Source: a virus. Taken from it: a stretch of DNA of 13,975 bases. Below the pieces are notes generated by a model. That model was not told the DNA's origin. It saw only the letters and a program-made list of their open reading frames with translations, and made no database searches. The stretch lies in IMG/VR virus record IMGVR_UViG_3300045256_000094. One strand, written 5' to 3'. The position numbers and the translations under genes were made by a program. Within the stretch, counting starts at the first letter, position 1; each line of letters begins with the position of its first letter. Shown piece after piece: positions 937 through 13,975 of the stretch.

Positions 937-1665
937 TCAGATCATGCTGACCTGGAACGGCTCGATGGTCCGCCCCCGGTAGAAGGTGAAGTATTTGTTC
1001 TCGTCGTTCATCTCGATGTCGAGGAACTGTTCGAACTCCTGCTTGGTACGGTCGTCGGTGGTCAGGCGGGAGAAGTCCCAATACCAGACCTGCCGGTGCG
1101 TCAGTTCGTTCTCCGTGACCTTGCCGTCCCCGTTCTCGTCCCGCATGGACGTGACCGTGGCCCCGTAGGCGTCTTTGGCGTCGTTCTTCCGCCAGAACTT
1201 CCACGGCTCGGGAAGCTTGTTGCCGTCGTCGTCCTCGTTGATCCAGAACTCGCCGGACGGGTCGCCCAGAATCTTCTCGTGGAAGTGCTGGTCGTACTCC
1301 ATCTCGTAGTAGAGCTTGTACATGCGGAACTCGAACCCGCCCTCCACGTCGTCGTTCGGGATCGCCCGTAGCCGAAGCCGGAGGGGCTTGGACGAGCCGA
1401 GCAGGACGCCCCGCAGGCAGTAGTCGGTGGAGAAGAACTTCTTCCGGCCGACTTCCGTCTGGTAGACCTCGATCTTGTCCACGAAGAAGTTGATCCCGCT
1501 GAACTCCAGGTCGCTGCTGATCGAGACGCTGACCCCGATCTTAGCCTTCAGCGGGTTGTGGTACTCGAACTCCGTCGGGCCGATGACCCGCTTGTTCTTC
1601 CCCGTGAGAATCTGCCACAGCGTCCGACCCTTGCCGTCCGCACTGACCACTTTCCCTTCGGCCAT
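937..1665 (-). CDS. hypothetical protein (242 aa) with one canonical EF-hand-type calcium-binding loop
   Basis: Start trimmed to ATG 1665 (MAEGKVVSADGKG...), which is preceded by AAGGAG with a 6-nt spacer. Codons end strongly in G/C from this ATG onward. The loop DENGDGKVTENE is at 1105..1140. The longer track ORF (to 1791) adds an Arg/Thr/Pro-rich N-extension with no ribosome-binding site. Confidence 0.8.
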   Translation of the reverse strand: MAEGKVVSADGKGRTLWQILTGKNKRVIGPTEFEYHNPLKAKIGVSVSISSDLEFSGINFFVDKIEVYQTEVGRKKFFSTDYCLRGVLLGSSKPLRLRLRAIPNDDVEGGFEFRMYKLYYEMEYDQHFHEKILGDPSGEFWINEDDDGNKLPEPWKFWRKNDAKDAYGATVTSMRDENGDGKVTENELTHRQVWYWDFSRLTTDDRTKQEFEQFLDIEMNDENKYFTFYRGRTIEPFQVSMI

Positions 1666-2044
1666 TTTCGTCTCCTTCACTGAGTATGAGTCGCTTGAGC
1701 CAGTTGGTGTGCTTACCCCAGGATTTCCACACGCCTTTGGGATCACGGGTGTGCTTCGGCCGGTAAGCAAAGCCGTCGTTCCACGTCGCACAGACGATGA
1801 TCCCTGTTTGCTCCCGGAACCACTGCTCGAAGAGAGTTATCAGCAGTCCCGGCTTCCCAACACGGTATTCGTTGAACCCGGCCTCGTCTTGCAGCACATC
1901 CTCCGGTTCCCGAAGAAAGGGTGGTTGTGGGATGGCGTCTTCGTATTCGGCCCGGCGAGCGTAGTAGTTACTCAGACACTCGACCGTGACCAGATACTCG
2001 ACCCCATCAATCACCCTCGCTTCGGGAACCGGAGAAGGCGTCAT
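1541..2044 (-). CDS. hypothetical protein (167 aa); its 3' end overlaps the next gene by 125 nt
   Basis: ATG 2044 is preceded by GGGAG (5-nt spacer) and lies 1 nt after the stop of the upstream gene. The N-terminal two thirds have G/C-ending codons. The last ~41 codons lie out of frame inside the 937..1665 gene. Confidence 0.65.
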   Translation of the reverse strand: MTPSPVPEARVIDGVEYLVTVECLSNYYARRAEYEDAIPQPPFLREPEDVLQDEAGFNEYRVGKPGLLITLFEQWFREQTGIIVCATWNDGFAYRPKHTRDPKGVWKSWGKHTNWLKRLILSEGDENGRRESGQCGRQGSDAVADSHGEEQAGHRPDGVRVPQPAEG

Positions 2045-2045
2045 G

Positions 2046-3197
2046 TTAGCTCCCGATGCGTTTGACGAAGATCACGTTGAACAGGAAGATCGCCCCGATG
2101 ATAACAACGACCCCGAGGCAAATCCAGCCCAAGATGCTCCACGCCACGCCACCACCGCCGCTCCCGGTCGCCGGGCCGGACGTGTGGACGACCCGCACGT
2201 TCGGATTGTACACAGACTCGATGTAGTCCTGGTCGTACATCAGGGTCGGGTTGTCGTTGAACTCCGGGTCAACGTAGCCGGGGTTCCGGGCGTAGTTCTG
2301 CCGCTCCAGGGCGGCGATCCGGGCACGCACTTCGCCGTCTTGCAGCCCCCGCTCGTAGGCCGCTTGGTCAATGTTGTAGCGGTTGTGGTAGAACCAGTAC
2401 GCCCGCCGCTCCGCACTCCACTCCATCATCATGTACCAGAACGGGCTGCTGTACCCGCCACCGACGAAGATCACCGGCTGACTCTGGTAGTAGCTGTACG
2501 GGTGGCTGTAGTGGTAGTGGTGAACGTGCTTCACCGTGTAGTTGTACCGAACCTCCGGGTCCAGATCACGGCTCGGCCGGTTGCGAATCGTCTCGACGGA
2601 CGGAGCCTTCGGGTCAATCTTCACTTCCTTACCGTCCGGTGCCTTGTAGCTCGGCCGGGGCGGTGCCGTGGCCTTCGCCGTCTCCTCGTAGGTCCGCTTG
2701 CTGGCCTCTTCCCGGTTGGCCCGAGCCTTCTCGTCGTTGCTGTTCGTACCGGGCCGCTTGCTGCTGCCCGGAGGCGAAGACGGCGGCGGCGCACCCGCAC
2801 TCGGCGAACCGAACTTGCCCTTGTTGTCGTCCTTCTTGTCATCCGGCTTCTTGCTGTCGCCGCCACCACTGTTCGGCGAACCGAACTTGCCGCCACTCGG
2901 AGGCGGGGTCGTGGGTTGCTTCGGCGGATCGGCGGGCTTCTTACTGTCGCCCCCGCTGTTCGGCGAGCCGAACTTGCCGCCACTCGGAGGCGGGGTCGTG
3001 GGTTGCTTCGGCGGGTCAGGCTTCTGGCTGCTGCTACTGCCCGGCGAGCCGAACTTGCTACCGCTACCGCCGCTGCTGGCCGGAGGCGGTGAGCTTTGCC
3101 CGCCCGGCTTTTTGCTTCCGCTCTGGGCATCGGCGTAGCCGCCCAGCATCGCCATGCAGCCCATCAGGGCGATGCACAGTCCGATCCGTCGTAACAT
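2046..3197 (-). CDS. envelope protein (383 aa): signal peptide, Pro/Gly/Ser/Lys-rich tandem repeats, Tyr/His/Trp-rich domain, C-terminal TM anchor
   Basis: ATG 3197 is preceded by GGAGG with a 6-nt spacer. The N-terminus MLRRIGLCIALMGCMAMLGGYADA-QSG looks like a Sec signal peptide. There are four KFGSP-anchored repeats. The C-terminus WSILGWICLGVVVIIGAIFLFNVIF-VKRIGS is a hydrophobic helix. Confidence 0.85.
   Translation of the reverse strand: MLRRIGLCIALMGCMAMLGGYADAQSGSKKPGGQSSPPPASSGGSGSKFGSPGSSSSQKPDPPKQPTTPPPSGGKFGSPNSGGDSKKPADPPKQPTTPPPSGGKFGSPNSGGGDSKKPDDKKDDNKGKFGSPSAGAPPPSSPPGSSKRPGTNSNDEKARANREEASKRTYEETAKATAPPRPSYKAPDGKEVKIDPKAPSVETIRNRPSRDLDPEVRYNYTVKHVHHYHYSHPYSYYQSQPVIFVGGGYSSPFWYMMMEWSAERRAYWFYHNRYNIDQAAYERGLQDGEVRARIAALERQNYARNPGYVDPEFNDNPTLMYDQDYIESVYNPNVRVVHTSGPATGSGGGGVAWSILGWICLGVVVIIGAIFLFNVIFVKRIGS
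2802..3056 (-). repeat. in-frame coding tandem repeat with an 87-nt (29-aa) unit
   Basis: 2869..2927 and 2956..3014 are identical except for 1 mismatch in 59 nt, at an offset of 87 nt. At protein level the unit is KFGSPNSGGDSKKPADPPKQPTTPPPSGG, with diverged flanking copies. KFGSP occurs at residues 48, 75, 104 and 128. Confidence 0.9.
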
Positions 3198-3228
3198 GTG
3201 TTACCTCCGTTGTTGGTCATCACTTCTT

Positions 3229-3237
3229 AATCTAGCA
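3229..3237 (-). promoter_or_regulatory. putative extended -10 promoter (TGCTAGATT) for the 2046..3197 gene
   Basis: The minus strand reads TGCTAGATT, with 31 nt between the motif and ATG 3197. It forms one arm of the 8-bp inverted repeat 3229..3236 / 3253..3260. No aligned -35 element. Confidence 0.35.
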
Positions 3238-3253
3238 AGACGGAACAGTCAAG

Positions 3254-4480
3254 CTAGATTCGTTCCAAGCGAAACATGCCGAGTTTCCACATTGCATTTT
3301 GCAACGTGATAAGGGCTGTGGCGATGGCGTACTTGAACCCTCGGCGACCACCTTGAATCCGCTCCCGCTCGTAAGCCGACCCCATGAGACGGGCAAGCTC
3401 GTGACAGTAGTTCGCCAGCCCGGCCACATCCTTTGACTCGACGGCGTGTTTCCACCAGTAGGTCAGGTACGAGGACATCCCGAGTAACTTCACGTCGTCG
3501 TCGGTCAGGTCGAGCGGAGCATTCGGCGTATCGGTCATGCCGTGGCAAGCCGACTGCACACGAGTCTCGGTGTAGGTAATGTACATCCCCGGCGAGTCCA
3601 CCTTCGTCCACTTTTTGACTTCAAACTTCACGTCTGAAGACCGGCTCACGGACAACAGGTTCCAAGCCAGGACGTTCCACGCCAGCTTGCGGCGTTCGGT
3701 CGGCGACTCGATGGGCGGGTCGAACCCGTCCTCGATCATCCGCATGGCGTCGTCTGCACTGAGGGCAGTGCCCTCACGAGACTTCATCTTCTTCCCATCG
3801 TCCCCCAGGACGAGGCCCATAGGTAGATGATACCGCTCCAAGCCCAGGTTGTAAAAGTGTTCCTTCTGCTCCATGCCGGTAACGTACCACAACTCCCCCT
3901 CCACCATCTTGCGGAAGGCAAGGTCGTAGTAGGCGTAAAGCGGACTCCCGTCCGCCCGCTTTAGGATCACTGGCGTGGAGGGGTGGGCGTCGTCCCACAT
4001 CCACGGCTGCTCGTGTTCTTCGAGTAGAGGACTGCCCTCTTCCTGATACGTCCGGCGATGGCACGGCACGATGTCGTCCGGCATCAGCACGTCGTAGTAA
4101 AGCTTCGGCTTATAGCCGACGAAATTACACCACCGCTCGAAGCCGGTCAGGGCGAAGCTCTTTACACCGAGCGATGCCCCCAACAGAGCAACCGGCTGGG
4201 AATACGGCAACACTCGTGAGAGCGAGTGGGCCACGGCGAGGTTCCGCAGGTGCCCGACGTGGAGAGCCTTGTTCAAATTTGGACTGAAACCGTCGATCAG
4301 CATCCCCGCACCGGGGTTGGTCGGTGCGGCCTCGGGCCACCGATAGTTTTCCGCAGTGAAGTGGTAGTTGTGGAACCACTTCTGAGGATCGTGGCGGTAG
4401 CCCTTCGCACCCTCAAGCGGCTGGTTCGTGGTCACGCCGAAACCGTGCTTCGTCGGCATCGGGCGTAGCTTCGACTCCAT
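3254..4480 (-). CDS. arginyl-tRNA synthetase-like class I aaRS paralog (408 aa), lacking the canonical N-terminal domain
   Basis: ATG 4480 is preceded by AGGAG with an 8-nt spacer. The HIGH motif sits in ArgRS context (FSPNLNKALHVGHLRN). Other ArgRS-like blocks are ILKRADGSPLYAYYDLAF, LWYVTGMEQKEHF and GDDGKKMKSREGTAL (the KMSKS/MSTR position). The helical C-terminus ending LGMFRLERI resembles the DALR anticodon-binding domain. Confidence 0.85.
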   Translation of the reverse strand: MESKLRPMPTKHGFGVTTNQPLEGAKGYRHDPQKWFHNYHFTAENYRWPEAAPTNPGAGMLIDGFSPNLNKALHVGHLRNLAVAHSLSRVLPYSQPVALLGASLGVKSFALTGFERWCNFVGYKPKLYYDVLMPDDIVPCHRRTYQEEGSPLLEEHEQPWMWDDAHPSTPVILKRADGSPLYAYYDLAFRKMVEGELWYVTGMEQKEHFYNLGLERYHLPMGLVLGDDGKKMKSREGTALSADDAMRMIEDGFDPPIESPTERRKLAWNVLAWNLLSVSRSSDVKFEVKKWTKVDSPGMYITYTETRVQSACHGMTDTPNAPLDLTDDDVKLLGMSSYLTYWWKHAVESKDVAGLANYCHELARLMGSAYERERIQGGRRGFKYAIATALITLQNAMWKLGMFRLERI

Positions 4481-4506
4481 CGGCGGTTCTCCTCTCAGGT
4501 TTAGGC

Positions 4507-4535
4507 ATTCTACCAGGGAAGAAACCCTCTGTAAA
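4507..4535 (-). promoter_or_regulatory. sigma70-like promoter for the ArgRS-like gene
   Basis: Minus strand: -35 TTTACA (4530..4535), 17-nt spacer, extended -10 TGGTAGAAT (4507..4515), about 26 nt upstream of ATG 4480. The interval is locally AT-rich. Confidence 0.55.
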
Positions 4536-4538
4536 GCG

Positions 4539-4567
4539 TTGCCCAGGAAGGAGTTTTTTGTTACAAT
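4539..4567 (+). promoter_or_regulatory. sigma70-like promoter for the helicase gene
   Basis: Plus strand: -35 TTGCCC (4539..4544), 17-nt spacer, extended -10 TGTTACAAT (4559..4567). An AAGGAAG ribosome-binding site lies 8 nt before ATG 4601. Confidence 0.5.
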
Positions 4568-4600
4568 ACGCTAGATAAATAGAGCAAGGAAGCTCGCACC

Positions 4601-6076
4601 ATGACAGATGTTAAGAATGTAATCAAGATAGAGAACGTCTACAGTTGGCTAATCACGGAGAACATGGGCCTCCGGGAAACGCTTTGTAAGGCTCTCAAAG
4701 TCCCCGCCAAGAACTACTGGCATTCTACCGCATACAAACGCAAGATTTGGGACGGACACATCGAGTTCTTTAAGAAGAACTCGGGCATGTTCTACTCCGG
4801 GCTTCTCCCCGAAGTCTGCGGCATCCTCTCGCACCTTAACGAACCCTACACCATCGCCGACCACCGAGGGGCGATCCAGTGGGGGCAAAAGGTCGTTGAC
4901 GAGAACTTCCTTCAGCAGTTCCAGAAGAAGGGCAGCAAGCCGCTCACCCTCTACGACTACCAAGTGGAGTACGTCAACCTCGCCCTGAAGTACGGCCGGG
5001 GCGTCATCACCGCCCCCACGGGTGCCGGTAAGACGAACGTCCTGATCTCGATCCTGAAGTGCCTGCCGCCCAAGACGCCGGTCCTCTTCATGACGAAGGG
5101 TGCGGGTCTGGTCGATCAGAACTACGCCGAGATGCTTCAGTGGGGCGTGCCGAACCTGGGCCGCTACTACGGGAAGTACAAAGAGCCGAACTACGTCATG
5201 TGCTGCACCATCCACCAGGACACGCTCAAGAGCATCGACAAGCTCTTGCCGAAGTTCAAGGTGCTGATCGTGGACGAGGTTCACGAAGCCATGAGCGACA
5301 CGCCCATCGCCGCCTACAAGAAGATGAAGGAGGCGACGTACCGCTTCGGGTTCTCGGCCACCCCGTTCAAGTACACGTCGAAGGACAACAAGGGCAACGA
5401 GATTTCGAAAGATAAGGAACACAAGTACAACGTCAAGGCTCACTTCGGGGCCAACTTCAAGCTGTCCTGCACGCCGTCGGGCAAGCTGACGACGAAAGAC
5501 TTGCAGGAGCGGGGCATCCTGTCGCCGAGCCGCTGCACGATTTACCCGATCAACGAGCCGGACAACATCCAGCACGAGCCGTATGGGGACGCTGTTACTC
5601 TTGGCATCTCCAACAACATGTACTTCCACCAAGTCATCATGCGACTGGCCCGGAAGCTGGAGGGGCGCACCCTCATCATGGTGGAACGGATCGACCAGGG
5701 GAACTACCTCAAGTCCCTGATCCCCGAGGCACACTGGATCAAGGGCGACGTGGCGGTTGGCGACCGGGCCACGATCTTCGGCGAGTTGAAGTACAGCGGT
5801 GAGAAGGTGATCTGTATCGCTATGCGACAGATCGTCACCGCCGGTATCAACGTGTTCGTCCACAACCTGATTAACGCATCAGGCGGCAACGCCGAACACA
5901 ACATCATTCAGCAGATGGGTCGTGGGCTGCGGTCCGCCTCAGACAAGAACGTGCTGGACTTCTACGACTTCCTGTTCACCACCAACGCCTACCTGCGTGA
6001 CCACTCCCTGAACCGCATCCGGGTTCTGGAGAGCGAGGGCCACGAGATCACCGTCAAAGAGAAGATCGACTTCTAA
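4601..6076 (+). CDS. SF2 DNA helicase, UvsW-like (DEAD/DEAH-box, ResIII-type)
   Basis: Motif I is ITAPTGAGKT, motif II LIVDEVHEA, motif III FGFSATP, motif VI QQMGRGLR. The N-terminal segment KIWDGHIEFFKKNSGMFYSGLLPEV resembles the T4 UvsW N-domain (WDGRIRLL...LPFGLV), recalled from memory. Confidence 0.9.
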   Translation: MTDVKNVIKIENVYSWLITENMGLRETLCKALKVPAKNYWHSTAYKRKIWDGHIEFFKKNSGMFYSGLLPEVCGILSHLNEPYTIADHRGAIQWGQKVVDENFLQQFQKKGSKPLTLYDYQVEYVNLALKYGRGVITAPTGAGKTNVLISILKCLPPKTPVLFMTKGAGLVDQNYAEMLQWGVPNLGRYYGKYKEPNYVMCCTIHQDTLKSIDKLLPKFKVLIVDEVHEAMSDTPIAAYKKMKEATYRFGFSATPFKYTSKDNKGNEISKDKEHKYNVKAHFGANFKLSCTPSGKLTTKDLQERGILSPSRCTIYPINEPDNIQHEPYGDAVTLGISNNMYFHQVIMRLARKLEGRTLIMVERIDQGNYLKSLIPEAHWIKGDVAVGDRATIFGELKYSGEKVICIAMRQIVTAGINVFVHNLINASGGNAEHNIIQQMGRGLRSASDKNVLDFYDFLFTTNAYLRDHSLNRIRVLESEGHEITVKEKIDF

Positions 6077-6816
6077 TACCCACAACTCCAGGTCTTGCCG
6101 TTCCAGGTCAAGCCCTCGGTGTTGTGGGTTCCCGCCCGCAGCTTTTCAAGTCGCTGGCCGATGATCTCGTACCGCTTCCTGAAGTTAAACAACGCACCCT
6201 CGTCGATCCCCGGCACGAACAGGGCAGAGATGCCGCCGTAGTGGTACACCTTCTCGAACAACTGCGGGTATTCCACAACATCGTAGCCGAGCAACTGAGC
6301 GGCGAGGTACACCATCGCCCCGCCGTCGAAGTATTGCTTGAACGGGATGTTCATGTACGGTGCCCACGAGAAGTGTTGCGTAATCTTCCTGATCTTCGCC
6401 GTGTTGAACAGGGCGAACGAGTGGTCGATCTTCTTCTGCCCACGGAGCGGGTATCCGGCGAACGTACACTCGCCCGTCGTGTGCGTGTCGGCCACGCACA
6501 GGGCGTTCTCCGTCATCTTGGACATCAACTCTGGGACGATTGGGCCGAGGACTTCCACGTCGCTGTCCACCGTCAGCAGGTACTCCGTGTCCACGGCACG
6601 CATGAGCGTGTCGAGGTTGCTACCGAAGTTGCACTGCTCGGTGTTCTGGATGAAGAAGTTGGCGTGACTTGCTGCGTAAGCGTTAGCACCATCCGAACTG
6701 GCGTCGTCGATGACGACCCACTTATAGTTCGGATGGTACTTGGAGAACGACTCCCACATGAGAGCGAGAGCCGTTGCGGTGTTCCTGACGGTGGTGACTA
6801 CTGTGACATTATCCAT
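6073..6816 (-). CDS. GT-A fold glycosyltransferase (family 2-like), soluble, 247 aa
   Basis: The N-terminus VTVVTTVRNTATALALMWESFSKYHPNYKWVVIDDASSDG is a typical GT2 opening. The DxD motif is in LTVDSDVEV. No TM segments. No clear SD before ATG 6816, which lies 12 nt after the HNH stop. Confidence 0.75.
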   Translation of the reverse strand: MDNVTVVTTVRNTATALALMWESFSKYHPNYKWVVIDDASSDGANAYAASHANFFIQNTEQCNFGSNLDTLMRAVDTEYLLTVDSDVEVLGPIVPELMSKMTENALCVADTHTTGECTFAGYPLRGQKKIDHSFALFNTAKIRKITQHFSWAPYMNIPFKQYFDGGAMVYLAAQLLGYDVVEYPQLFEKVYHYGGISALFVPGIDEGALFNFRKRYEIIGQRLEKLRAGTHNTEGLTWNGKTWSCGY

Positions 6817-6828
6817 GCCATAGAGTAG

Positions 6829-7605
6829 TCACGCCACGGCGTAGTCTTCGCAGAACTTACGGTCCACCCGCCAGTAGTCGGGCATGAACTTCGGCTTCAT
6901 CGTGTCGAGGAAGTGCTGCCTCCAGAACTTAGCGAACTCGTCGAAGTCCTTCACCTGGGCCATCACCTGCGCACCGAACCCCTGCCCCGAAGACGGAGGC
7001 TTGGGCTTCAGCTTCGCCAGTTCTTTGATCTCGGCGTCCGTTGGGACGTGCCCCAGGGCTTCCTGCAACAACAGCTTCATCACCACGATCCGGCCCGGCG
7101 GAATCTTGTCGCCGTGTTCCGTCAGTGAACGGGCCAGCCCCCGGACGTACATCTCGTCCCGGAAGTTCTCCTTCATCCCCGAAAGCGGGATGCCATACAA
7201 CTCCGAGAAGTGCTTCCGCTTCTTCTGCGACTCCTCTTCGTACTTGGTGTGGCACGAGGTACAGGTCGGCAGAACGTCGTGGCTGTTGTGCTTCTTGTGT
7301 GAGTTCGGCATGTGCCGCAGGAACGACCACGGCACGACATGGTGCCGGTTCAGGTCTTCCGTGGCCCCGCAGACGACGCAGTGGTTCGGCTTGGGCAACA
7401 GCGTCCAGGGGTCTTTCATCCCCCGACGGCCGCTCGGCTCGAACTTCAGCTTGATGGTGATCGGGTCGTCGGCCACCTTGTCGGCCAGCCCACGCTCCAA
7501 ATACCAGTCGATCCGCTTCTTCTCGCACCGGCCGGTAGGTTGGCCGTCCGGTGCGAGGATCAAGCAGTTGTCAAACAGAACTTGAGTGGCTGCGTTGTTT
7601 GGCAT
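6829..7605 (-). CDS. HNH-motif nuclease (258 aa) with extra N- and C-terminal regions
   Basis: CVVCGATEDLNRHHVVPWSFL...HNSHDVLPTCTSCHTKYE fits the CxxC...HH...N...CxxCH pattern of an HNH / His-Me finger. Confidence 0.75.
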   Translation of the reverse strand: MPNNAATQVLFDNCLILAPDGQPTGRCEKKRIDWYLERGLADKVADDPITIKLKFEPSGRRGMKDPWTLLPKPNHCVVCGATEDLNRHHVVPWSFLRHMPNSHKKHNSHDVLPTCTSCHTKYEEESQKKRKHFSELYGIPLSGMKENFRDEMYVRGLARSLTEHGDKIPPGRIVVMKLLLQEALGHVPTDAEIKELAKLKPKPPSSGQGFGAQVMAQVKDFDEFAKFWRQHFLDTMKPKFMPDYWRVDRKFCEDYAVA

Positions 7606-7611
7606 ACTCCA

Positions 7612-9318
7612 TTATACCTTGAGTTCAAGGGCGTCCATTTCCTTTTTGAACTTCGCCGGGTCGGCCTTGAACCACTCGGGTAGCAGGCTTCGCCGGGTGC
7701 AGTTCACAAGGGCTTGGAGGGTCTGGTAGCGACGGGTGTCGCCGATGTTCGGGTCGATCATGTCGTCCAGCACGGCCAGGGCGTCCTGATACGTCTTCAC
7801 CTTCTTCGCCTTCAGGCGACTCCTCAGTGAAGCGTAGGACGCCGCCGAGTAGTCCTTCGTGACTTCGACCAACTTCTGCATCTCGCCTTCGTTCAGGTCG
7901 ATCCCGACCGGCTTCATCATCCAGTGGATGAAGTCCTTCTGGTCTTCGCCTTCCGGGTCGAGGATCGGAATGATGAGATCGCCCACCCGCCCCGGACGCC
8001 GGATGTCGGCACTGAGGAGGTTGATCCGGGCCGTCATGAGCAGCCACACGATCTTACCCTTCAGGCGGGGGTCGGACATCATCGCCTGAATCTTGCCGGT
8101 CAGCCGCCGCTCCGTCTCGTGCGTATCTGCCCCGACGCCGCCGAACTGAGTGTCGGCCTCATCAACGAAGATGGCGAGCCGGTCCAGGGCTTCGGCCACC
8201 CGGCGGATTCGCTCGAAGGTCACGTCCGTCTGGCCGAACCACTGGCTGCGGAGGTTCTTCAACACCATCACCGGCATGTCCAACTCGGTGACGGCTGCCT
8301 CCATGATGAACGTCTTACCGCCGCCGATGGGACCGCCGATGGCGGCACCGGCCAGGGCTTCGTCCCCGCCCGCCTTGATCCGGGGGATGAACTCGTCCCG
8401 GAGGAACTTCTTGATCTGGCGGAAGCCCACCACGTCGTCGAGCCGGTGGTTCGGCTTCTTGAACTCCACCACGTCTTCACCAATCTGAGACGTGATGAAC
8501 TCGGCCACCTTGTCCACCACGTCGGCGACGGTGATGCCTTCGCCGTCGCAAAGCAGTTGGCGGTAGCCGTGCAGCGACAGCCCGGCCGTCATCTCGTCGA
8601 TACGGTCGAGCGTCTTGAGGTTCGGGAACACCGTCGTGCGGAACTGCCGCCGCTCCTCGACGTTCGGGCTGGAGATTTGGACTTCCAGCAGTTGCGGAAG
8701 TTGGGCGATAGATGAGTTAATCAACCCACGGGTTTCCGCCATGAAGATCACGCTGTCGTGACCGTTCATGAACTTCGGGTCGCTGAGCCAGTCCTGCACC
8801 ACGGCGATGCGCCGCCGGTCGGCCCAGCCCAGGGTCGCCGTCTGGCCGACGGGCAGGAGGAAGTCCGCCGCCTCAATCACGATGACGAGATCGTTCTTCA
8901 GCTTCATCTTGCGGCCGACCAGGGCGAGTTGCCGCAGGAACTCCATCGCCAGGGTCGGGTTCTCGACGGTCTGTCCGATCAGCGTGTCGAAGTCGTTGGG
9001 GTTCGGGGCGGTTTCCTTCTGTCGGGCCAGGGACGTGACCTGCCGCCGGGGGTTGATGCCCTTGAACTCGTTGAAGGCGTTGCGGAGTTCGTCTTCGTTG
9101 TTGACCACCCGGACAGCCCGGTTGATCTCGTACACCACGACGGTGACGCCCCGGTTCGTCTCGGTGGCGGCGATCTGGCACTTCGTCGCAAGGTAGTCCA
9201 CTAGCGGGACGCACTCCTTGCCGTCGAAGAACAAGTCGTTGATGTTGCCAGTCAGCAACACGGACCGACTCTTGCCGTTGTTGATGATCTTGGCGAGCTT
9301 CGGGTAGAACTCCAGCAT
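7612..9318 (-). CDS. two-domain AAA+ ATPase (568 aa): degenerate N-terminal AAA-like domain plus a classical AAA C-terminal domain
   Basis: Walker A is GGPIGGGKT (8311..8337) and Walker B is LAIFVDEAD. The second region of homology is LLMTARINLLSADIRRPGRVGDLI, as in the classical AAA clade (RPGRFD). The N-half has LLTGNINDLF and VIVIEAADF where Walker A and B would sit, both degenerate. Confidence 0.85.
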   Translation of the reverse strand: MLEFYPKLAKIINNGKSRSVLLTGNINDLFFDGKECVPLVDYLATKCQIAATETNRGVTVVVYEINRAVRVVNNEDELRNAFNEFKGINPRRQVTSLARQKETAPNPNDFDTLIGQTVENPTLAMEFLRQLALVGRKMKLKNDLVIVIEAADFLLPVGQTATLGWADRRRIAVVQDWLSDPKFMNGHDSVIFMAETRGLINSSIAQLPQLLEVQISSPNVEERRQFRTTVFPNLKTLDRIDEMTAGLSLHGYRQLLCDGEGITVADVVDKVAEFITSQIGEDVVEFKKPNHRLDDVVGFRQIKKFLRDEFIPRIKAGGDEALAGAAIGGPIGGGKTFIMEAAVTELDMPVMVLKNLRSQWFGQTDVTFERIRRVAEALDRLAIFVDEADTQFGGVGADTHETERRLTGKIQAMMSDPRLKGKIVWLLMTARINLLSADIRRPGRVGDLIIPILDPEGEDQKDFIHWMMKPVGIDLNEGEMQKLVEVTKDYSAASYASLRSRLKAKKVKTYQDALAVLDDMIDPNIGDTRRYQTLQALVNCTRRSLLPEWFKADPAKFKKEMDALELKV

Positions 9319-9602
9319 TACTCTTCTTCCTCGTCTTGGGCGTTCACCACGATGTCGTAAGCCCGATTGATGAGCTTATCGACGTGTTCGGGAACAGCCG
9401 GGCCATTGGAACACAACTCGCCGCAGACACAATCGCCGTTCCGCATAACCTCCATGTTCACGAGGCCGGTGCGGAGGATTTCGACATCAAACGAGCAGCC
9501 GAGTTTGACGAGTTCGGTTGCCTTCGTTTCGATCTCAACGGGCCGCTCGATGTCCATCGGACGGCGTTCGCCGTTGGGCAGTAGGTATTGCGTGAACCTC
9601 AC
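9318..9602 (-). CDS. hypothetical small protein (94 aa), four Cys, acidic DEEEE tail
   Basis: GTG start at 9602 is preceded by GAGGAAG and overlaps the upstream stop (GTGA). Its stop overlaps the AAA+ ATG (TAATG). Cys residues at 36, 58, 60 and 64 (C-x21-CxCxxxC). Confidence 0.6.
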   Translation of the reverse strand: MRFTQYLLPNGERRPMDIERPVEIETKATELVKLGCSFDVEILRTGLVNMEVMRNGDCVCGELCSNGPAVPEHVDKLINRAYDIVVNAQDEEEE

Positions 9603-9715
9603 GTCTCTTCCTCTTTGACTGATTGGTAGGCGTACCAGGGAACGAGCAGCAGGATCAAGATCGTGTAGAAGTACAGTGCCAGCATGTTCGTGAAGAACTT
9701 CCCGATCTTGACCAT
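9599..9715 (-). CDS. 38-aa single-pass membrane micropeptide (below the ORF-track size cutoff)
   Basis: ATG 9715 is preceded by TAAGGAGAG with a 4-nt spacer (TAAC). Translation is MVKIGKFFTNMLALYFYTILILLLVPWYAYQSVKEEET. The hydrophobic core is about 20 aa. Its stop TGA overlaps the GTG start of the next gene. Confidence 0.6.
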   Translation of the reverse strand: MVKIGKFFTNMLALYFYTILILLLVPWYAYQSVKEEET

Positions 9716-9725
9716 GTTACTCTCC

Positions 9726-9968
9726 TTACTTGGCGTGCTTGCCGTTCACCTTCGGGCAGACGGCGAACCGCTGGTTCATTTCGTCATGGAGGACGAGGTA
9801 TTCAACCCCGTCGATCATCACCGTCTCGACCTTGATGGTGCTGTTGCTGCCCTGAATCCGAAGCTCGGTCGCCTTGCCGTCATGCTCGATGACCTTTGTT
9901 TCCTGGTTACGGCACCCGCAGAGTACCAGGGCGGCGGCGACGGTAAAGGCGGTCAGTAGTCGCTTCAT
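9726..9968 (-). CDS. small lipoprotein (80 aa)
   Basis: MKRLLTAFTVAAALVLCGC has a signal peptide and a lipobox-like L-C-G-C or L-V-L-C. GAGGAG lies 5 nt upstream. ATG 9968 overlaps the upstream stop (ATGA). Confidence 0.7.
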   Translation of the reverse strand: MKRLLTAFTVAAALVLCGCRNQETKVIEHDGKATELRIQGSNSTIKVETVMIDGVEYLVLHDEMNQRFAVCPKVNGKHAK

Positions 9969-10324
9969 TTCTTCTCCTCGTTGTTCGCTTTCACTTGCTC
10001 GTAGCGGATGTCCACCCTGATCCGTTGGTAGATGGACATGTAGAGAACGGCCGAGGCCCAGGTTACGCCGTGGGCCAGCACATACCCCCGCCAGTCATCA
10101 TACCACACCTGATGGCGGAATACGAGCATCATCAGGAGCGTGAACCAGAACGAGAAGCAGTATTCGCAGGTCGGGATGTAGCACACCTTCCGTACCAAAT
10201 ACGGGAGGGTGTGATCCTTGCACCACGGCTGGAAGTAGTTCTTCCGCAGGTCGCTGAAGACTTCTTCCTTCGTGGCAGCCCACGAGAACACCGCCACCAT
10301 CGCCCCGATGATGATCGCTTCCAT
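9965..10324 (-). CDS. three-TM membrane protein (119 aa), possibly DUF1360-like
   Basis: Start trimmed to ATG 10324 (MEAIIIGAMVAVFSW...), which overlaps the Pnkp-like stop (TAATG). The Cys-bearing TM segment IPTCEYCFSFWFTLLMMLVF recalls the C-x-W-C-x-S-x-W helix of DUF1360; this is from memory and unverified. Confidence 0.65.
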   Translation of the reverse strand: MEAIIIGAMVAVFSWAATKEEVFSDLRKNYFQPWCKDHTLPYLVRKVCYIPTCEYCFSFWFTLLMMLVFRHQVWYDDWRGYVLAHGVTWASAVLYMSIYQRIRVDIRYEQVKANNEEKK

Positions 10325-11271
10325 TAGTTGAAGAACTCCTCGGTGTGCATGTACTTGAACCCGCACCGGGCAGCAGCCGTCTCGTCCGTCTTCTGGTCCC
10401 CGACGAACAAGCACTTCGCCGGGTTCAGCTTGTACGTCTCGATCATCAGTGCCCCGATACCGGGGTGCGGCTTCCGGCAGTAGCAGTTTACCGGCGGGAT
10501 GTTATGAGGACAGAAGAAAAATGGAATATCCATCCCCAGCAGGGCGTTCGTCTTCTTGAACGCCTTGATGACGTTCTCCTCGGTGCAATGCTTCTTGGCG
10601 ATCCCGCTCTGGTTCGACCAACCGAGAACGTGATCCGGCTTGAAGTCGTCGATGTACTTCTTGATCCGCTCGGCACGCCCCGGCAGCAGGACGACTTCCT
10701 CCTCGCACGTCGGGAAGTCGAACTTCGACCCGGCGGGCGTGTCCCGGAGGTTGCCGTCGTAGTCGAGGATCAGTGCGCTGTTCTTGTACTCCGGCCCCCA
10801 GACCCGCTTGAAGTCCCGCTCAACCACGCTGGAGAACCCCTCGCCGGTGCGGGGCTTTTCGAACAGCTTTCGGTAGTTGAACAACGCCACCGGCGGGAAG
10901 TGGTTCGGGTTCTTGGTCGTCTTGAAATCCTCGGGCATGAGGAGCTTGCCTGTTTGGCGGATCATCCGCAGACAGGCGTTGAGTTGTGCGTCCTCGAAGC
11001 TCGTGCTGAGCCAGACGCAGTTGACCGGGATTTTGTTATCCTTCCCGACCTTGATGACCGACGCCCGGCTCTTGGCGTCCGGGTAGGTGTTGTCGAGAAT
11101 GAAGAGATTGCCGCCCTTCTTGATCCGCCGTTCGAGTTCCTGGGCCACGCCCTCCAGCGTCCCGCCCATCTCGTCCCGGTTGAGCCGGTCATACCCCTTC
11201 GCAACGTACTCCGCTGCGATGGTGGACTTGCCCGAAGCGTTGTAACCCAGAAGGACGACAATCTCGCTCAT
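10324..11271 (-). CDS. bifunctional P-loop polynucleotide-kinase-like / HAD-IIIA phosphatase (Pnkp-like, 315 aa)
   Basis: Start trimmed to ATG 11271 (GAGG 5 nt upstream). Kinase half: GYNASGKST, LNRDE and FILDNT parallel T4 Pnk GCPGSGKST, INRDD and IISDTN. Phosphatase half: LILDYDGNL (motif I), WSNQSGI (motif II), CPH...CYCRKPHPG (Zn-loop plus motif III Lys, as in GmhB/HisB-N), FVGDQKTDETAA (motif IV). Confidence 0.85.
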   Translation of the reverse strand: MSEIVVLLGYNASGKSTIAAEYVAKGYDRLNRDEMGGTLEGVAQELERRIKKGGNLFILDNTYPDAKSRASVIKVGKDNKIPVNCVWLSTSFEDAQLNACLRMIRQTGKLLMPEDFKTTKNPNHFPPVALFNYRKLFEKPRTGEGFSSVVERDFKRVWGPEYKNSALILDYDGNLRDTPAGSKFDFPTCEEEVVLLPGRAERIKKYIDDFKPDHVLGWSNQSGIAKKHCTEENVIKAFKKTNALLGMDIPFFFCPHNIPPVNCYCRKPHPGIGALMIETYKLNPAKCLFVGDQKTDETAAARCGFKYMHTEEFFN

Positions 11272-11273
11272 GA

Positions 11274-11609
11274 CTACCTCGGTTTCACTAAGTCGTAGTG
11301 GTAAGCCCGATCCGTCTCCACACCGTCTTCGGACAGCCCGATGCCGGGTTTCGGCATCTTGTACTTGGCGTCCTTCTCGTACTTCGTCTTCGTGTTGAAG
11401 TAGAAGTGGCGTGTCTCCACGCCTTCCTGAACCTTGAAGTGGATGACGACCTTTTCGGGCATCCACCCGTTGACGACCGGGACTTTGAAGTCCAGGCCGT
11501 CAACCTTCACATACTCCACCGAGTCGATCTCGCTGTCCAGGTGGTAACTTGACTGCGGGTTTGACACCACCCCCAATGTGAGGGCCAGGGTCAAGAGCAT
11601 TCCTTGCAT
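11274..11609 (-). CDS. small secreted protein (111 aa), unknown function
   Basis: Start trimmed to ATG 11609, with AGGAG in the 11-nt gap after the ABC ATPase stop. N-terminus MQGMLLTLALTLGVVSNPQSS looks like a signal peptide. The stop lies 2 nt before the Pnkp-like ATG. Confidence 0.7.
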   Translation of the reverse strand: MQGMLLTLALTLGVVSNPQSSYHLDSEIDSVEYVKVDGLDFKVPVVNGWMPEKVVIHFKVQEGVETRHFYFNTKTKYEKDAKYKMPKPGIGLSEDGVETDRAYHYDLVKPR

Positions 11610-11620
11610 CCTTCTCCTTG

Positions 11621-12526
11621 TTAGACAACACTGACCTTCGAGTTCCAGAAGGTTCGCCCGACTTCGGGGATGATCGTCTCGTTCTGGTCGAACACGATCT
11701 TCCTCAACTCGGCCTTCTGGTCGGCGAACCGACTGAAGTCCCTCGGGTCGTCCGGGTGAAAGACCGGAGCGGGTTGATCGTACACGATTGTGGCCCCACA
11801 TTCAACTCCCCGTTCCTTCATCGTGGGGCACGTCCAGTAGCGGCTCAGCCCAACCACCCGGTCGGCGAGGTAGAACGCCTCGTTGAGTTCGTGCGTGACG
11901 AACACCACCGTGTACGGTGGCGGCAGACCCGCCTTCTTCGCCGTCAGGTTGTCCTGGTAGAGCCGCAACAGCAGGTGTTGCAGGTCTTCACGGGTCGCCT
12001 CGTCGAGCGCACCGAACGGCTCGTCGAGCAAGAGAATCTTCGGCTTCATAATCAACGCCTGGGCGATGCTCACCCGCTGACGCTGACCACCCGATAGTTG
12101 GGTTGGGTAACAGTCCATCGACCCGTCCAGATCGAAGTCCGTCAACATCTGCTTGGCTTCAGCCCGGTACTTCCGTTTCAGGTCACGCAGCATGAACGGG
12201 CGGAACACCCGGCCGAGGAAGCTCGTTTGGTCGAGGATCGGCCCGACGGCCACGTTGTCGAGGGCGGTGAGGAACGGGAACAGGGTGTACTGCTGGTACA
12301 CGATCCCGCAGTCCCGGCTCGGCCCGATAACTTCCTTCCCGTCCACCATGATCGCCCCTTCCATCGGCGGGTCGGTGCCGAGTATGGCCCGGAGCAGGGT
12401 GGACTTGCCGCAGCCGCTCGGCCCGACCAGGGCGACGAACTGCCCGGCGTCCACGTCGAGGTTGCAGTGGTGAAGCACCCGCTTCGTCTTGAACCAGTGG
12501 TTAACGTGCGTGCAACGTAACAGCAT
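11621..12526 (-). CDS. ABC transporter ATP-binding protein, NitT/TauT (nitrate/sulfonate/taurine-type) family, with a ~50-aa C-terminal extension
   Basis: Walker A is GPSGCGKST, the Q-loop is in IVYQQYTLFP, the signature is LSGGQRQRVSIAQAL, Walker B is ILLLDEPFGALD, and the H-loop is VVFVTHE. AGGAGAAG lies upstream of ATG 12526. Confidence 0.9.
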   Translation of the reverse strand: MLLRCTHVNHWFKTKRVLHHCNLDVDAGQFVALVGPSGCGKSTLLRAILGTDPPMEGAIMVDGKEVIGPSRDCGIVYQQYTLFPFLTALDNVAVGPILDQTSFLGRVFRPFMLRDLKRKYRAEAKQMLTDFDLDGSMDCYPTQLSGGQRQRVSIAQALIMKPKILLLDEPFGALDEATREDLQHLLLRLYQDNLTAKKAGLPPPYTVVFVTHELNEAFYLADRVVGLSRYWTCPTMKERGVECGATIVYDQPAPVFHPDDPRDFSRFADQKAELRKIVFDQNETIIPEVGRTFWNSKVSVV

Positions 12527-12554
12527 CTTGCTTCTCCTGTGGTTTGGCGTTGAG

Positions 12555-13382
12555 TTACTTCCCGTTCTCGAACCACGGAGACACCTTGTCCCGCAGCTTC
12601 AGCAGCGACCAGTCGAGGACGTACCCCAGCAGGCCGAGGACGATGATGTAGTTGTACACAATGTTCATGTGGCTCATGCGGCTCTCGATCCGTAGCCGGT
12701 AGCCGATGCCCACGTTCGCACTCGCCCACTCGGCTGCGATTAGGAACACCATCGCCGGACCGACGGCCAGTCGCACCGACTCCACCACCCGTGGGAAGAT
12801 CATCCGCAGGATGACGTTCCACACTACCTCGAAGTTGCTGGCACCCAGCGTGTACGCCTTGTTCACCAACTCGTCCGGCACGTCGTACTTGGCGCTCTGG
12901 TACACGGTCATGGTCAGAGCCGGGATGATGCCGAAGGCGATCATCATCACGAACATCTTGAACTCAGTGCCGAACAGGATGAAGAACACGGCGAGCATGG
13001 CCGTCGGCGGGATTTTCGAGAAGAAACTGAGGACGGGATGGAACAGTGCCTCGATCTGGGCGAAGCACGCCATCAGTAAACCCACCAGCAGCGAGAAGGC
13101 GATACCAAGTGCCATCCCCGCCGTGTAGCGGTAGCCCGTGGCCTGCACGTCCTCCCAGAGCGGGATCGTGTGGGGCGGTGACTTGCTGGGGCTGGTGATC
13201 TCCAGCAGTCCCTTGTAGATGTCCACGACGCCCGGCATCGTGGTGTCCTTCGGGTTCTGCTCGTGCTGTCGGATCGACAGGAACTCGTAGAAGGCAAACA
13301 AGACCAGCACCGACACGATCCCGAGGACTACTTGGGTCGTCTTGGAGATGGGCTTGCGAATGACTAACTTTTTGGGTCGCAT
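12555..13382 (-). CDS. ABC transporter permease, NitT/TauT family (275 aa)
   Basis: Multi-TM protein with the EAA-loop region KAYTLGASNFEVVWNVILRMIFPRVVESVRLAVGPAMVFLIAAE, typical of SsuC/TauC/NrtB-type permeases. GGAGG lies 6 nt before ATG 13382. Confidence 0.88.
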   Translation of the reverse strand: MRPKKLVIRKPISKTTQVVLGIVSVLVLFAFYEFLSIRQHEQNPKDTTMPGVVDIYKGLLEITSPSKSPPHTIPLWEDVQATGYRYTAGMALGIAFSLLVGLLMACFAQIEALFHPVLSFFSKIPPTAMLAVFFILFGTEFKMFVMMIAFGIIPALTMTVYQSAKYDVPDELVNKAYTLGASNFEVVWNVILRMIFPRVVESVRLAVGPAMVFLIAAEWASANVGIGYRLRIESRMSHMNIVYNYIIVLGLLGYVLDWSLLKLRDKVSPWFENGK

Positions 13383-13404
13383 CGGTGTCCTCCGTGGTTA
13401 CATC

Positions 13405-13432
13405 AGTCTACCGCATCAGGGGTGGTTTGTAA
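13405..13432 (-). promoter_or_regulatory. possible promoter for the permease-to-GT2 operon
   Basis: Minus strand: TTACAA (13427..13432), 16-nt spacer, TAGACT (13405..13410), 22 nt upstream of ATG 13382 and immediately downstream of the terminator. Each hexamer matches consensus at 4 of 6 positions. Confidence 0.3.
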
Positions 13433-13442
13433 TGGGTTTGGG

Positions 13443-13474
13443 AAACAAAAACGCCACGGCTAACTGCCGTGGCG
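13443..13474 (-). terminator. Rho-independent terminator after the substrate-binding protein gene
   Basis: A perfect 9-bp stem (13452..13460 cgccacggc pairs with 13466..13474 gccgtggcg) has a 5-nt loop. On the minus strand it is followed directly by TTTTTGTTT. It lies 24 nt after the stop at 13499. Confidence 0.85.
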
Positions 13475-13498
13475 TCTGGACGATCAGTGGCAGGCCGG

Positions 13499-13975
13499 TC
13501 ACTTCTTGGCAGGCCCGGCTTCCGCCGCCTTGATCCACTTGGCGGCGTCGAAGTTCAGGTCGGCCTGTGTGTCCCCGTATCCGATGCTCGGGGTCTTGGT
13601 GACGATCCCCCGCTCGACGCAGAACTTCACGATCTCGGTCTGCGTCTTACGGAACTGCTCGTCGTAGACGATGACGCCGATCTCGTCGTCGCCGTAGAAC
13701 TTCGTCTCCTTGCAGCACTGACGCATGTCGGCGGCGTTCAGGTTGCTGAACTTGGCCCCGAGGGCGACGAACGCCTCGTCGGTCGTCAGCATCTCGTTGG
13801 CCTTGTAGAACGTCTCGATGATGCAGCAGGCCGCACGGTCCCCGCCCGGCTTGGCGAGGCTGTCGGTGCTGAACGCCACGCTGTCCACGATCTCGCCGGG
13901 GATCAGGCTGCTGTCGGCGAGCCGGTGGGCCTTGTCGTTGGTGCGGAGCGTCTGGAGGACGAACGGGTTCCACAC
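13499..13975 (-). CDS. ABC transporter periplasmic substrate-binding protein, C-terminal ~158 aa (gene continues beyond the right edge)
   Basis: The ORF is open to the window edge, so the apparent GTG start at 13975 is an edge artefact. It lies upstream of the cognate permease and ATPase. The assignment rests mostly on operon context; the sequence (..IPGEIVDSVAFSTDSL...NFDAAKWIKAAEAG) is compatible with NMT1/SsuA-like binding proteins, but I cannot verify this. Confidence 0.6.
   Translation of the reverse strand: MWNPFVLQTLRTNDKAHRLADSSLIPGEIVDSVAFSTDSLAKPGGDRAACCIIETFYKANEMLTTDEAFVALGAKFSNLNAADMRQCCKETKFYGDDEIGVIVYDEQFRKTQTEIVKFCVERGIVTKTPSIGYGDTQADLNFDAAKWIKAAEAGPAKK

Follow-up and report, generated by a model that had tools for sequence, protein, structure and literature searches.

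Among the systems described so far, the closest to the locus considered here is an operon type that was described in bacteria by genome comparison alone (Ravi et al. 2024, mSystems; PMC11237479). It comprises genes for PspA, for a membrane-anchored divergent Snf7 and for a protein in which an active classical AAA+ domain is joined to an inactive one, as exemplified by OGG56892.1 from Candidatus Handelsmanbacteria, and the role proposed for it is an ATP-dependent membrane remodelling tied to solute transport. Predicted membrane-remodelling operons of the FtsZl1-VWA-OmpA kind have also been reported (Makarova & Koonin 2010; PMC2875224). Here, a putative counterpart of the PspA-containing type is examined in a stretch of 13,975 bp from an IMG/VR virus record (hereafter the window; ~59% G+C), which is nearly all coding, mainly on the minus strand, and whose positions 11621-13975 encode the components of a predicted ATP-binding cassette (ABC) importer. 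The reading favoured as a whole, with a probability of about 0.6, is that of a phage-borne PspA-like/AAA+/ABC envelope module captured from planctomycete-like hosts.

A predicted nine-gene cell-envelope operon

The lineage of the window comprises at least eight contigs, two from IMG/VR, and the longest of the eight or more measures 652 kb. According to its members, the three importer genes are predicted to be the distal part of a conserved nine-gene cell-envelope operon. In the closest relatives of the window, the order starts with a fusion of a binding-protein-like region to an OmpA/MotB domain (~620-650 aa), a secreted VWA protein and another binding-protein-like/OmpA fusion of ~515 aa, and continues with a two-transmembrane (two-TM) coiled-coil protein, a PspA/Vipp1-like protein, the substrate-binding protein (SBP), the permease and the ATPase, after which come a variable slot and an AAA+ protein of ~570 aa. 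The upstream block is found in the same order in a relative 83% identical to the window (L052), and in the lineage loci L053, L056, L057 and L003. The larger fusion (N653) carries a signal peptide, a weak NMT1 domain and a MotB/OmpA-like (ZorB-like) C-terminus, and the smaller one (OmpA518) an N-terminal TM segment, the binding-protein-like region and an OmpA domain (PF00691). In the VWA protein, a signal peptide is combined with an anchor at the C-terminus. The two-TM protein (u245) is conserved and ends in a helical tail, while the soluble, helical u263 is present in all longer relatives. A profile built from 23 u263 sequences has as its top PDB match the Vipp1/PspA structure 6zvr (E=2.4e-4), aligned over nearly the full length (profile positions 53-270 with chain residues 12-230).

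The AAA+ gene lies within the window, where the preliminary description, made from the sequence, had overlooked it as a classical AAA+ ATPase genetically linked to the transporter. Its active domain spans residues ~320-500 of 568 and finds its best PDB sequence matches in VAT, CDC48 and Vps4, with E-values down to 4e-23. Two apparent signs of a degenerate AAA domain at its N-terminus were set aside: the two stretches reported by phmmer are one active domain aligned to both D1 and D2 of VAT, and the match between the N- and C-terminal halves given by hhalign is an artefact of overlapping boundaries.

An alignment of the AAA+ protein was scanned against 185,579 species genomes (one genome each), followed by tblastn and clustering of open reading frames (ORFs). 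Of the resulting 37 loci most are from Pirellulales, among them one of the isolate Botrimarina colliarenosi and others on chromosome-scale contigs of 7.08, 1.16, 0.88 and 0.87 Mb; further ones come from Hydrogenedentota, Acidobacteria, Lentisphaerae/Victivallis, Bdellovibrionales and Wallbacteria. In Pirellulales and several other groups (Acidobacteria, Hydrogenedentota, Lentisphaerae and Bdellovibrionales), the operon is located on the chromosome. Orthologues of the SBP, the permease and the ATPase, with 45-58% identity, are located directly upstream of the AAA+ gene or within ~8 kb of it, and the AAA+ gene is near this trio in ~25 bacterial loci and in all loci of the lineage. In Pirellulales the order is AAA-N653-VWA-OmpA518-u245-u263-SBP-permease-ATPase, whereas in Acidobacteria, Bdellovibrionales, Hydrogenedentota and Lentisphaerae the AAA+ gene occupies the opposite end of the operon (N653...ATP-AAA). 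Importer, AAA+, PspA-like and OmpA-fusion genes occur together in ~30 loci from at least six phyla and two phage-like lineages, and in ~20 loci both OmpA fusions, with their signal or TM segments, are co-linear with the SBP, the permease and the ATPase. In Pirellulaceae, the operon is flanked in conserved synteny by transaldolase, creatininase-family and nitroreductase-like genes.

The remaining neighbours behave differently. Pnkp is a lineage-specific neighbour outside the bacterial module, absent from all 37 bacterial loci, and the same loci hold none of the HNH, helicase, arginyl-tRNA synthetase (ArgRS)-like, Pro-rich and o284 genes. The preliminary description had stated that synteny in bacterial genomes would point to a normal host transporter; such synteny exists for the block of transporter and AAA+ genes, but not for Pnkp, the helicase, the ArgRS-like gene or HNH.

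The importer genes

The reading of positions 11621-13975 as the C-terminus of a binding protein, a NitT/TauT-type permease and an ATPase with intact motifs was borne out, and so were the gene junctions and the shared G/C-ending codon style that had been noted. The ATPase stop codon (TAA, 11623-11621) is separated by an 11-nt gap (caAGGAGaagg) from the ATG at 11609 of a 111-codon ORF, whose own stop (TAG, 11276-11274) is followed 2 nt on by the ATG at 11271 of the Pnkp-like gene for a kinase and HAD phosphatase; an AGGAG also precedes the ATG of the ATPase. The G+C content at third codon positions (GC3) is 0.72-0.95 throughout (0.84-0.95 in the transporter genes versus 0.72-0.92 in their neighbours). 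A near-identical full-length binding protein of 355 aa with a lipoprotein signal is encoded by a Logan contig (L001:124-1191) that also bears a permease 100% identical to that of the window, one of two Logan contigs with such a copy. In the permease, the segment KAYTLGASNFEVVWNVILRMIFP, read straight from the sequence, resembles an EAA loop, and the translation contains the EAA-like stretch KAYTLGAS...ILRMIFP, as in BPD_transp_1-type permeases with an EAA coupling loop. The ATPase has Walker A (GPSGCGKST), Q-loop, signature (LSGGQRQR), Walker B (ILLLDEP), D-loop and H212, and these motifs of the nucleotide-binding domain (NBD) are all invariant across the family alignments. Its homologues number 1922 at E<=1e-40; one protein with 100% identity to it is recorded on a JGI contig of 169,027 bp.

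From the point of view of its family, the window encodes a putative type-I ABC importer of the NitT/TauT kind that falls outside every named subfamily, because the scores lie far under the curated cut-offs while the Foldseek placements remain within this kind. The comparison with hidden Markov models that had been suggested for placing it in a named subfamily yielded none above the NCBIfam cut-offs. For the permease the best matches are TauC (80.6 vs a cut-off of 342), SaoP (70.9 vs 295), SsuC (57.3 vs 347) and NtrB (47.1 vs 209), all far under the equivalog thresholds. The best families for the ATPase are PhnT2 (178 vs 458), sulfate, TauB (168 vs 357) and NrtCD, again all under the thresholds, and for the binding protein the urea-carboxylase-associated family (ABC_peri_uca, 35.9 vs 334), with a weak match to TIGR03427 (E=4.5e-9). 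Alignment of the binding-protein family reveals the invariant motifs SEYPSWS, TNMD, PTSTSxGAD and VWNPF. An AlphaFold2 model of the binding protein, calculated on the 84%-identical orthologue P0121 and not on the window's own sequence, has a predicted local distance difference test (pLDDT) score of 91.6, and Foldseek matches it to TauA (6ssy, E=2e-14) and SsuA (2x26, E=3e-14) with TM-scores of 0.63-0.79, at no more than 17% identity to any solved structure among its PDB matches. A profile search against PDB likewise gives SsuA (E=0.002). The protein thus modelled has the TauA/SsuA/NrtA (NMT1-like) fold, of which the window holds the last 158 residues only. The ATPase of the window was modelled with a pLDDT of 92.7, and the PDB folds that match it best are those of NrtD/NrtC and CmpD/CmpC, with which it shares 31-33% identity. 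Since the permease and the ATPase are each encoded by a single gene, both presumably form homodimers.

A distinctive feature of the ATPase is its C-terminal extension. The tail that had been noticed is real, although longer than the ~50 aa first given: it comprises about 70 residues, which makes it roughly 45 residues longer than in NrtD/CmpD. Its consensus, GATxVYDxPAPxFxPDxPRDFxxFxxQKxELxxxVFxxxxTFW, is kept in all 17 aligned phage-like and bacterial orthologues and in 47 database homologues, and the AlphaFold2 model predicts that it is folded, with strands at 231-252 and a helix at 264-279 (pLDDT ~88-95). The tail, conserved in every orthologue, is a family trait and not a local oddity. Additionally, the family alignment shows an insertion of ~25 aa past the Q-loop.

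The 116 nt that separate the binding-protein gene from that of the permease contain the strongest terminator-like site of positions 9000-13975, a hairpin (Table 1) that possibly acts as an attenuator or mRNA stabiliser raising the ratio of binding protein to membrane components.

Related contigs and the nature of the replicon

Contigs with the synteny of the lineage measure 47, 90.7, 94, 154 and 652 kb. Those from IMG/VR, of 94 kb (L003/L004) and 68.6 kb (L005), follow the gene order of the window at 40-62% amino acid identity (SBP-permease-ATPase-...-Pnkp-AAA-...-helicase-(ArgRS-like)-Pro-rich-o284), and the genes at 937-7605 are syntenic in L003/L004, L005, L045, L053, L056 and L057. Pnkp, helicase, ArgRS-like, HNH and o284 genes are confined to the window, IMG/VR, metagenome contigs and the 652-kb ENA contig. 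When metagenomes were scanned for o284, a conserved ORF, five loci were obtained, and the only one long enough to reveal it has the same synteny. The 652-kb contig (L053; ENA ERZ25039605 contig_87554, positions 602,896-623,804 of 652,424 bp) carries the module, Lyase_1, R2K ATP-grasp, Pnkp, AAA+, helicase and ArgRS-like genes.

Among 50,697 GenBank phage records, a concatenate of nine accessory proteins matches five, all of them labelled 'uncultured phage' and 462-642 kb in size, which we take to come from the Al-Shayeb huge-phage study. One of them, LR756511.1 (595,163 bp), contains five of the matching places, among them that for Pnkp with 55.6% identity. The same record provides the single outstanding GenBank phage match for the helicase (44%) and for the ATPase (53%), the remaining ATPase matches being generic ABC ATPases with 33-43% identity. 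It carries the eight genes N653-VWA-OmpA-u245-u263-SBP-permease-ATPase (L050, 290,615-331,475; 12.3-20.9 kb of the locus), with two tRNA calls at the locus end. No AAA+ partner was found anywhere in the record by tblastn (E<=1e-5), and the neighbourhood of its helicase shares nothing else with the lineage of the window.

The 94-kb relative encodes a gp32-like single-stranded-DNA-binding protein (SSB; PF08804/phrog_1192), an RNA ligase (PF09414), an ADP-ribosylglycohydrolase and further HNH proteins, together with orotidine 5'-monophosphate (OMP) decarboxylase and large glycosyltransferases. Its gene complement also includes a fusion of a DnaJ domain to a Ser-Thr kinase (L049, 17399-18418), a 1,385-aa protein with multiple glycosyltransferase domains (L061, 14341-18498), a sigma-factor-like protein (L062, 7153-8097) and a 1,040-aa ORF that matches no family (L062, 8027-11149). 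For the small AAA_33 kinase encoded 5' of the L003 module, a weakly matching sequence (41% over 46 aa) lies on a contig labelled as a giant-virus genome (GVMAG, the label of one of the IMG/VR contigs L059 and L060); this is probably a generic P-loop similarity.

Virus-type genes lie on both sides of the module, there is kinship to recognised viral genomes, and the replicon is most likely a huge phage.

Evolution of the module

In neighbour-joining trees, the ATPase and the AAA+ protein of the lineage each form one clade adjoining that of Pirellulales. The SBP and the permease of the lineage cluster as well, with the 94-kb IMG/VR relative beside or outside the group, and LR756511.1 forms a branch of its own that falls close to the Pirellulales sequences or among them. 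The clade of the lineage stands apart from a group of Acidobacteria, Hydrogenedentota and Lentisphaerae. Transporter genes and their neighbours have diverged about equally across the lineage (40-62% amino acid identity), and eight related contigs keep the importer beside Pnkp, AAA+ and helicase genes at similar divergence, in agreement with the preliminary view that the importer is no recent juxtaposition. Because both the tree placement and the equal divergence fit this scenario, the ancestor of the lineage appears to have captured the whole operon once, long ago, from a planctomycete-like host, and to have kept it under selection, while the LR756511.1 line fits a separate capture.

Proposed function and alternative explanations

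If the module works as proposed, the lipoprotein SBP, and perhaps also the two wall-anchored paralogues, would capture a small solute in the periplasm, probably anionic or zwitterionic, and the SBP would hand it to a permease homodimer powered by an ATPase homodimer. The PspA-like protein and its two-TM partner would assemble on the cytoplasmic membrane as a scaffold to be recycled by the AAA+ ATPase, and the C-terminal extension of the ABC ATPase may couple or regulate transport and remodelling. During infection the module would work as it does in bacteria, with the phage maintaining or reshaping the host membrane and sustaining uptake. A more far-reaching version, less likely than not, is that Planctomycetota phages of >600 kb carry a complete host-derived machine, resembling the endosomal sorting machinery ESCRT-III and wired to wall-anchored binding proteins and the importer, for membrane upkeep or rebuilding in a long infection. 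Such a machine could keep the membrane energised, or build a membrane-bound compartment for replication or assembly in hosts that are already rich in endomembranes.

Several results weigh against the favoured reading of a captured phage-borne module. The five upstream genes lie outside the window and are deduced from its relatives. The profile E-value on which the assignment of u263 to PspA depends is modest, u263 being a coiled-coil protein to which Pfam assigns no family, and for the two-TM protein u245 both a PDB profile search and a profile-profile comparison with the PspA-like family were negative. Within the N-terminal 270 aa of the AAA+ protein there is no Walker A, nor does a PDB profile search give a significant match. 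The trees are midpoint-rooted and unbootstrapped, and the operon of Ravi et al. and the module of the window are alike in being predicted, known from genes alone. As for the viral replicon considered in the preliminary description, the huge-phage-like gene matches and the IMG/VR relatives speak for it, but Pfam and PHROGs recognised no gene for a capsid, portal, terminase or tail protein in positions 23,952-88,911 of the 94-kb relative, ~65 kb that represent a minority of a genome probably larger than 500 kb. Virion genes were not recognised in the other lineage loci either, and tRNA scans of the window and of the lineage loci gave none. The word phage therefore stays an inference.

The possibility that the contigs are pieces of an ordinary bacterial chromosome, planctomycete-like or other, or of a giant plasmid, and that their phage labels are misclassifications, is unlikely. 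It would account for the lack of virion genes in ~65 kb and for the presence of the module on the chromosomes of many bacteria; cell-like genes stand nearby in the relatives (OMP decarboxylase, aminotransferase, DnaJ-kinase fusion, glycosyltransferases, sigma factor), and a contig of 652 kb is large for a phage. It is hard to reconcile, however, with the lineage-specific genes, which occur in none of the 37 loci drawn from the species genomes and match only huge-phage records among those of GenBank phages. The gp32-type SSB, the pairing of RNA ligase with Pnkp, the UvsW-like helicase, the several HNH genes and the ORFans with overlapping stops and starts are also at odds with a chromosome, and two relatives passed the virus calling of IMG/VR. 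With respect to a giant plasmid, 72,556 plasmids offer only AAA+ matches of 24-26% identity, on Paenibacillaceae megaplasmids whose context is uninformative.

Other alternatives concern the role of the importer. According to the preliminary description it would be an auxiliary metabolic module; this holds for the completeness of the importer, but not for its free-standing nature, as it is part of an operon of PspA-like, AAA+, OmpA-fusion, VWA and ABC genes. A stand-alone auxiliary metabolic gene (AMG) importer boosting one nutrient (sulfonate, taurine, phosphonate or nitrate-like), with the AAA+ and upstream genes unrelated to it, is accordingly rather improbable, even though the three-gene importer is canonical with its motifs intact, the solved structures nearest to it are those of the NrtBCD/CmpBCD nutrient importers and of the binding proteins TauA/SsuA, and metabolic cargo (CinA, CoaBC-like, Lyase_1) sits beside the ATPase in relatives. 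Such an importer would not be expected to stay with AAA+, PspA-like and OmpA-fusion genes in ~30 loci despite the relocation of the AAA+ gene, to score far under the cut-offs of all NCBIfam nutrient equivalogs, or to have a conserved ATPase extension that is absent from NrtD/CmpD. That same extension, if it signals to the PspA-like/AAA+ pair, would suit a different role, in which the ABC system is the energising or sensing arm of an envelope machine, responding to a wall- or membrane-derived ligand, and not a nutrient importer. The operon has binding-protein-like domains in three paralogous versions, of which two are joined to wall-binding domains of the OmpA/MotB type; this agrees with such a role, and a link of membrane remodelling to the transporter has been proposed (PMC11237479). 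It is nevertheless doubtful, given the importer-type coupling loop of the permease and the bona fide importers that are nearest to the ATPase and the SBP; the present data do not separate sensing from uptake. Finally, it is very improbable that the module serves anti-phage defence, counter-defence or superinfection exclusion by changing the envelope. Conflict systems often include VWA and OmpA-type proteins. Membrane and surface proteins of huge phages may affect susceptibility to other phages (PMC7162821). On the other hand, PADLOC matches are generic or marginal only, and the Pirellulaceae operon is embedded in conserved housekeeping synteny and not in a variable island.

Other features of the window

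All features with coordinates are collected in Table 1. The neighbours named in the preliminary description (UvsW-like helicase, Pnk-like enzyme, HNH and ArgRS) were confirmed, with the qualification that the ArgRS-like gene is truncated and the HNH match weak.

Table 1. Features of the window, listed from its right to its left end
Feature	Positions	Strand	Evidence and remarks
Substrate-binding lipoprotein gene, C-terminal 158 codons	13499-13975	-	Translation; gene continues past window end
Terminator-like hairpin	13449-13477	-	12-bp stem, 8 G-C pairs, then TTGTTT
ABC importer permease, 275 aa	12555-13382	-	BPD_transp_1 PF00528, E=1e-15, residues 98-261
ABC ATPase, 301 aa, NitT/TauT type	11621-12526	-	ABC_tran PF00005, E=4e-33
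ATPase C-terminal extension, residues ~230-301	11624-11839	-	Beyond Pfam/NCBIfam NBD alignments
111-codon ORF, hydrophobic N-terminus	11274-11609	-	Translationally coupled between ATPase and Pnkp
Pnkp-like bifunctional kinase and HAD phosphatase	10324-11271	-	AAA_33, PNK3P, HAD; TIGR01663 E=5e-20
Small ORF, membrane protein, 119 aa	9965-10324	-	
Small ORF, lipoprotein-like, 80 aa	9726-9968	-	
Small ORF, 94 aa	9318-9602	-	
Classical AAA+ ATPase, 568 aa	7612-9318	-	PF00004 E=1e-12; GGGKT, VDEAD
HNH	6829-7605	-	Weak Pfam match
Family 2 glycosyltransferase (GT2)	6073-6816	-	
UvsW-like helicase	4601-6076	+	phrog_16; UvsW-annotated phage matches
Truncated ArgRS-like, 408 aa	3254-4480	-	HVGH (HIGH-type), DALR anticodon-binding domain, KMKS-like segment
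Pro/Gly-rich TM protein, 383 aa	2046-3197	-	Signal-like N-terminus, tandem Pro/Gly/Ser-rich repeats (PPKQPTTPPPSGGKFGSPNSGG...)
Conserved ORF	937-1668	-	Lineage synteny
Partial ORF, >=277 codons, ATG at 832	2-832	-	Exits left end; GC3 ~0.87

The slot that follows the ATPase holds variable cargo. In the window it is occupied by the secreted 111-aa ORFan, which belongs to no Pfam, NCBIfam or PHROG family and is found at the same spot elsewhere only in the 83%-identical relative L052. In L003 the slot 3' of the ATPase contains CinA (NMN deamidase family) and GNAT (10935-11883), and in L053 a Lyase_1 and an R2K ATP-grasp gene (11074-13037). In L057, CoaB/CoaC-like DFP and Flavoprotein genes (3729-5558) are inserted inside the module, between the OmpA-fusion and the two-TM genes.

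The GT2 gene and the three small ORFs have no orthologues in the IMG/VR relatives and look like strain-specific insertions among conserved genes. The ArgRS-like gene is conserved in the lineage at 44-58%; it lacks most of the N-terminal and catalytic length and therefore may not work as a synthetase. Together with the nearby Pnkp and the RNA ligase of the relatives, it resembles a tRNA-repair gene set. In the Pro/Gly-rich protein, for which no family was found, the C-terminal half is rich in His and Tyr, has a TM segment at its end and is conserved at 45-53% in all members of the lineage. Finally, the partial ORF at the left end, an ORFan downstream of o284, has no match among GenBank phage or PDB sequences.

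Implications

As judged from gene content and order, an operon type noted in a bacterial survey would now be a conserved block in huge-phage-like genomes. Its retention in a deeply diverged lineage and its recurrence in a separate phage record of 595 kb argue for a role that the virus needs in infection, and link phage biology to membrane maintenance of the PspA/ESCRT-III type. An easy mis-annotation is also corrected, as databases label these genes 'nitrate/sulfonate/bicarbonate transporter'. The same operon is carried by the cultured planctomycetes Botrimarina colliarenosi, Bremerella cremea and Posidoniimonas corsicana, and its function is therefore testable there. If viral, the 652-kb contig of the lineage would be among the largest phage genomes. 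Should the more far-reaching version given above be true, the module would be the first virus-encoded membrane-remodelling system of the PspA/ESCRT-III type in bacteria, and would offer a way into what this uncharacterised operon, widespread among Pirellulales, does.

Comparison with known systems

With the operon of Ravi et al., the module shares a candidate PspA-like protein, a coiled-coil protein with a TM anchor and an AAA+ protein of the classical kind with an extra N-terminal domain, as well as the ABC ATPase, the permease and secreted fusions of solute-binding to OmpA peptidoglycan-binding domains. This likeness is one of part lists, OGG56892.1 having been compared by its description, and the Snf7 and 'inactive AAA' labels of the published operon were not reproduced in the proteins of the lineage. 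The two differ in gene order, and the module has a separate lipoprotein SBP, a VWA protein and two fusions of a binding-protein-like region to OmpA instead of one. Furthermore, the published operon is known from bacteria only, whereas here it is found in huge-phage-like elements with Pnkp and cargo genes interleaved. Searches of the literature on LR756511, on planctomycete jumbo phages and on phage-encoded PspA/ESCRT-III retrieved nothing relevant.

Two further identities were considered and rejected. VWA and OmpA genes are shared with the FtsZl1-VWA-OmpA operons, but no gene for an FtsZ-like protein or GTPase is present in any locus examined. As for known defence systems, PADLOC returned only generic or marginal hits, namely mad3/mad8 for the ABC ATPase and ZorB for the OmpA-like tail (E=1.7e-4).

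Within the ABC transporters, the importer has the type-I architecture and the ATPase and SBP folds of NrtABCD/CmpABCD, TauABC and SsuABC (TC 3.A.1.16/17), from which it departs by the ~70-aa extension of the ATPase and by its obligatory linkage to non-transport genes. With respect to huge phages (Al-Shayeb et al. 2020; PMC7162821), the features in common are contigs of up to 652 kb, accessory genes (Pnkp, ArgRS-like, HNH, RNA ligase) whose matches in GenBank phages are confined to the five records of 462-642 kb, an aminoacyl-tRNA-synthetase-like gene and many membrane or surface proteins. The largest genomes of that study were assigned to Bacteroidetes, whereas a planctomycete host is suggested here, and the ~59% G+C of the window differs from the 41% of LR756511.1. 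Finally, transport AMGs of phages, such as pstS of cyanophages and the ATPases of PHROG 293/2392 annotated as 'ABC transporter' (the ATPase of the window matches phrog_293 with E=9e-63), likewise place a transport function on a probable phage genome; the module differs from them in that all three parts of the importer are present, accompanied by six further envelope genes.

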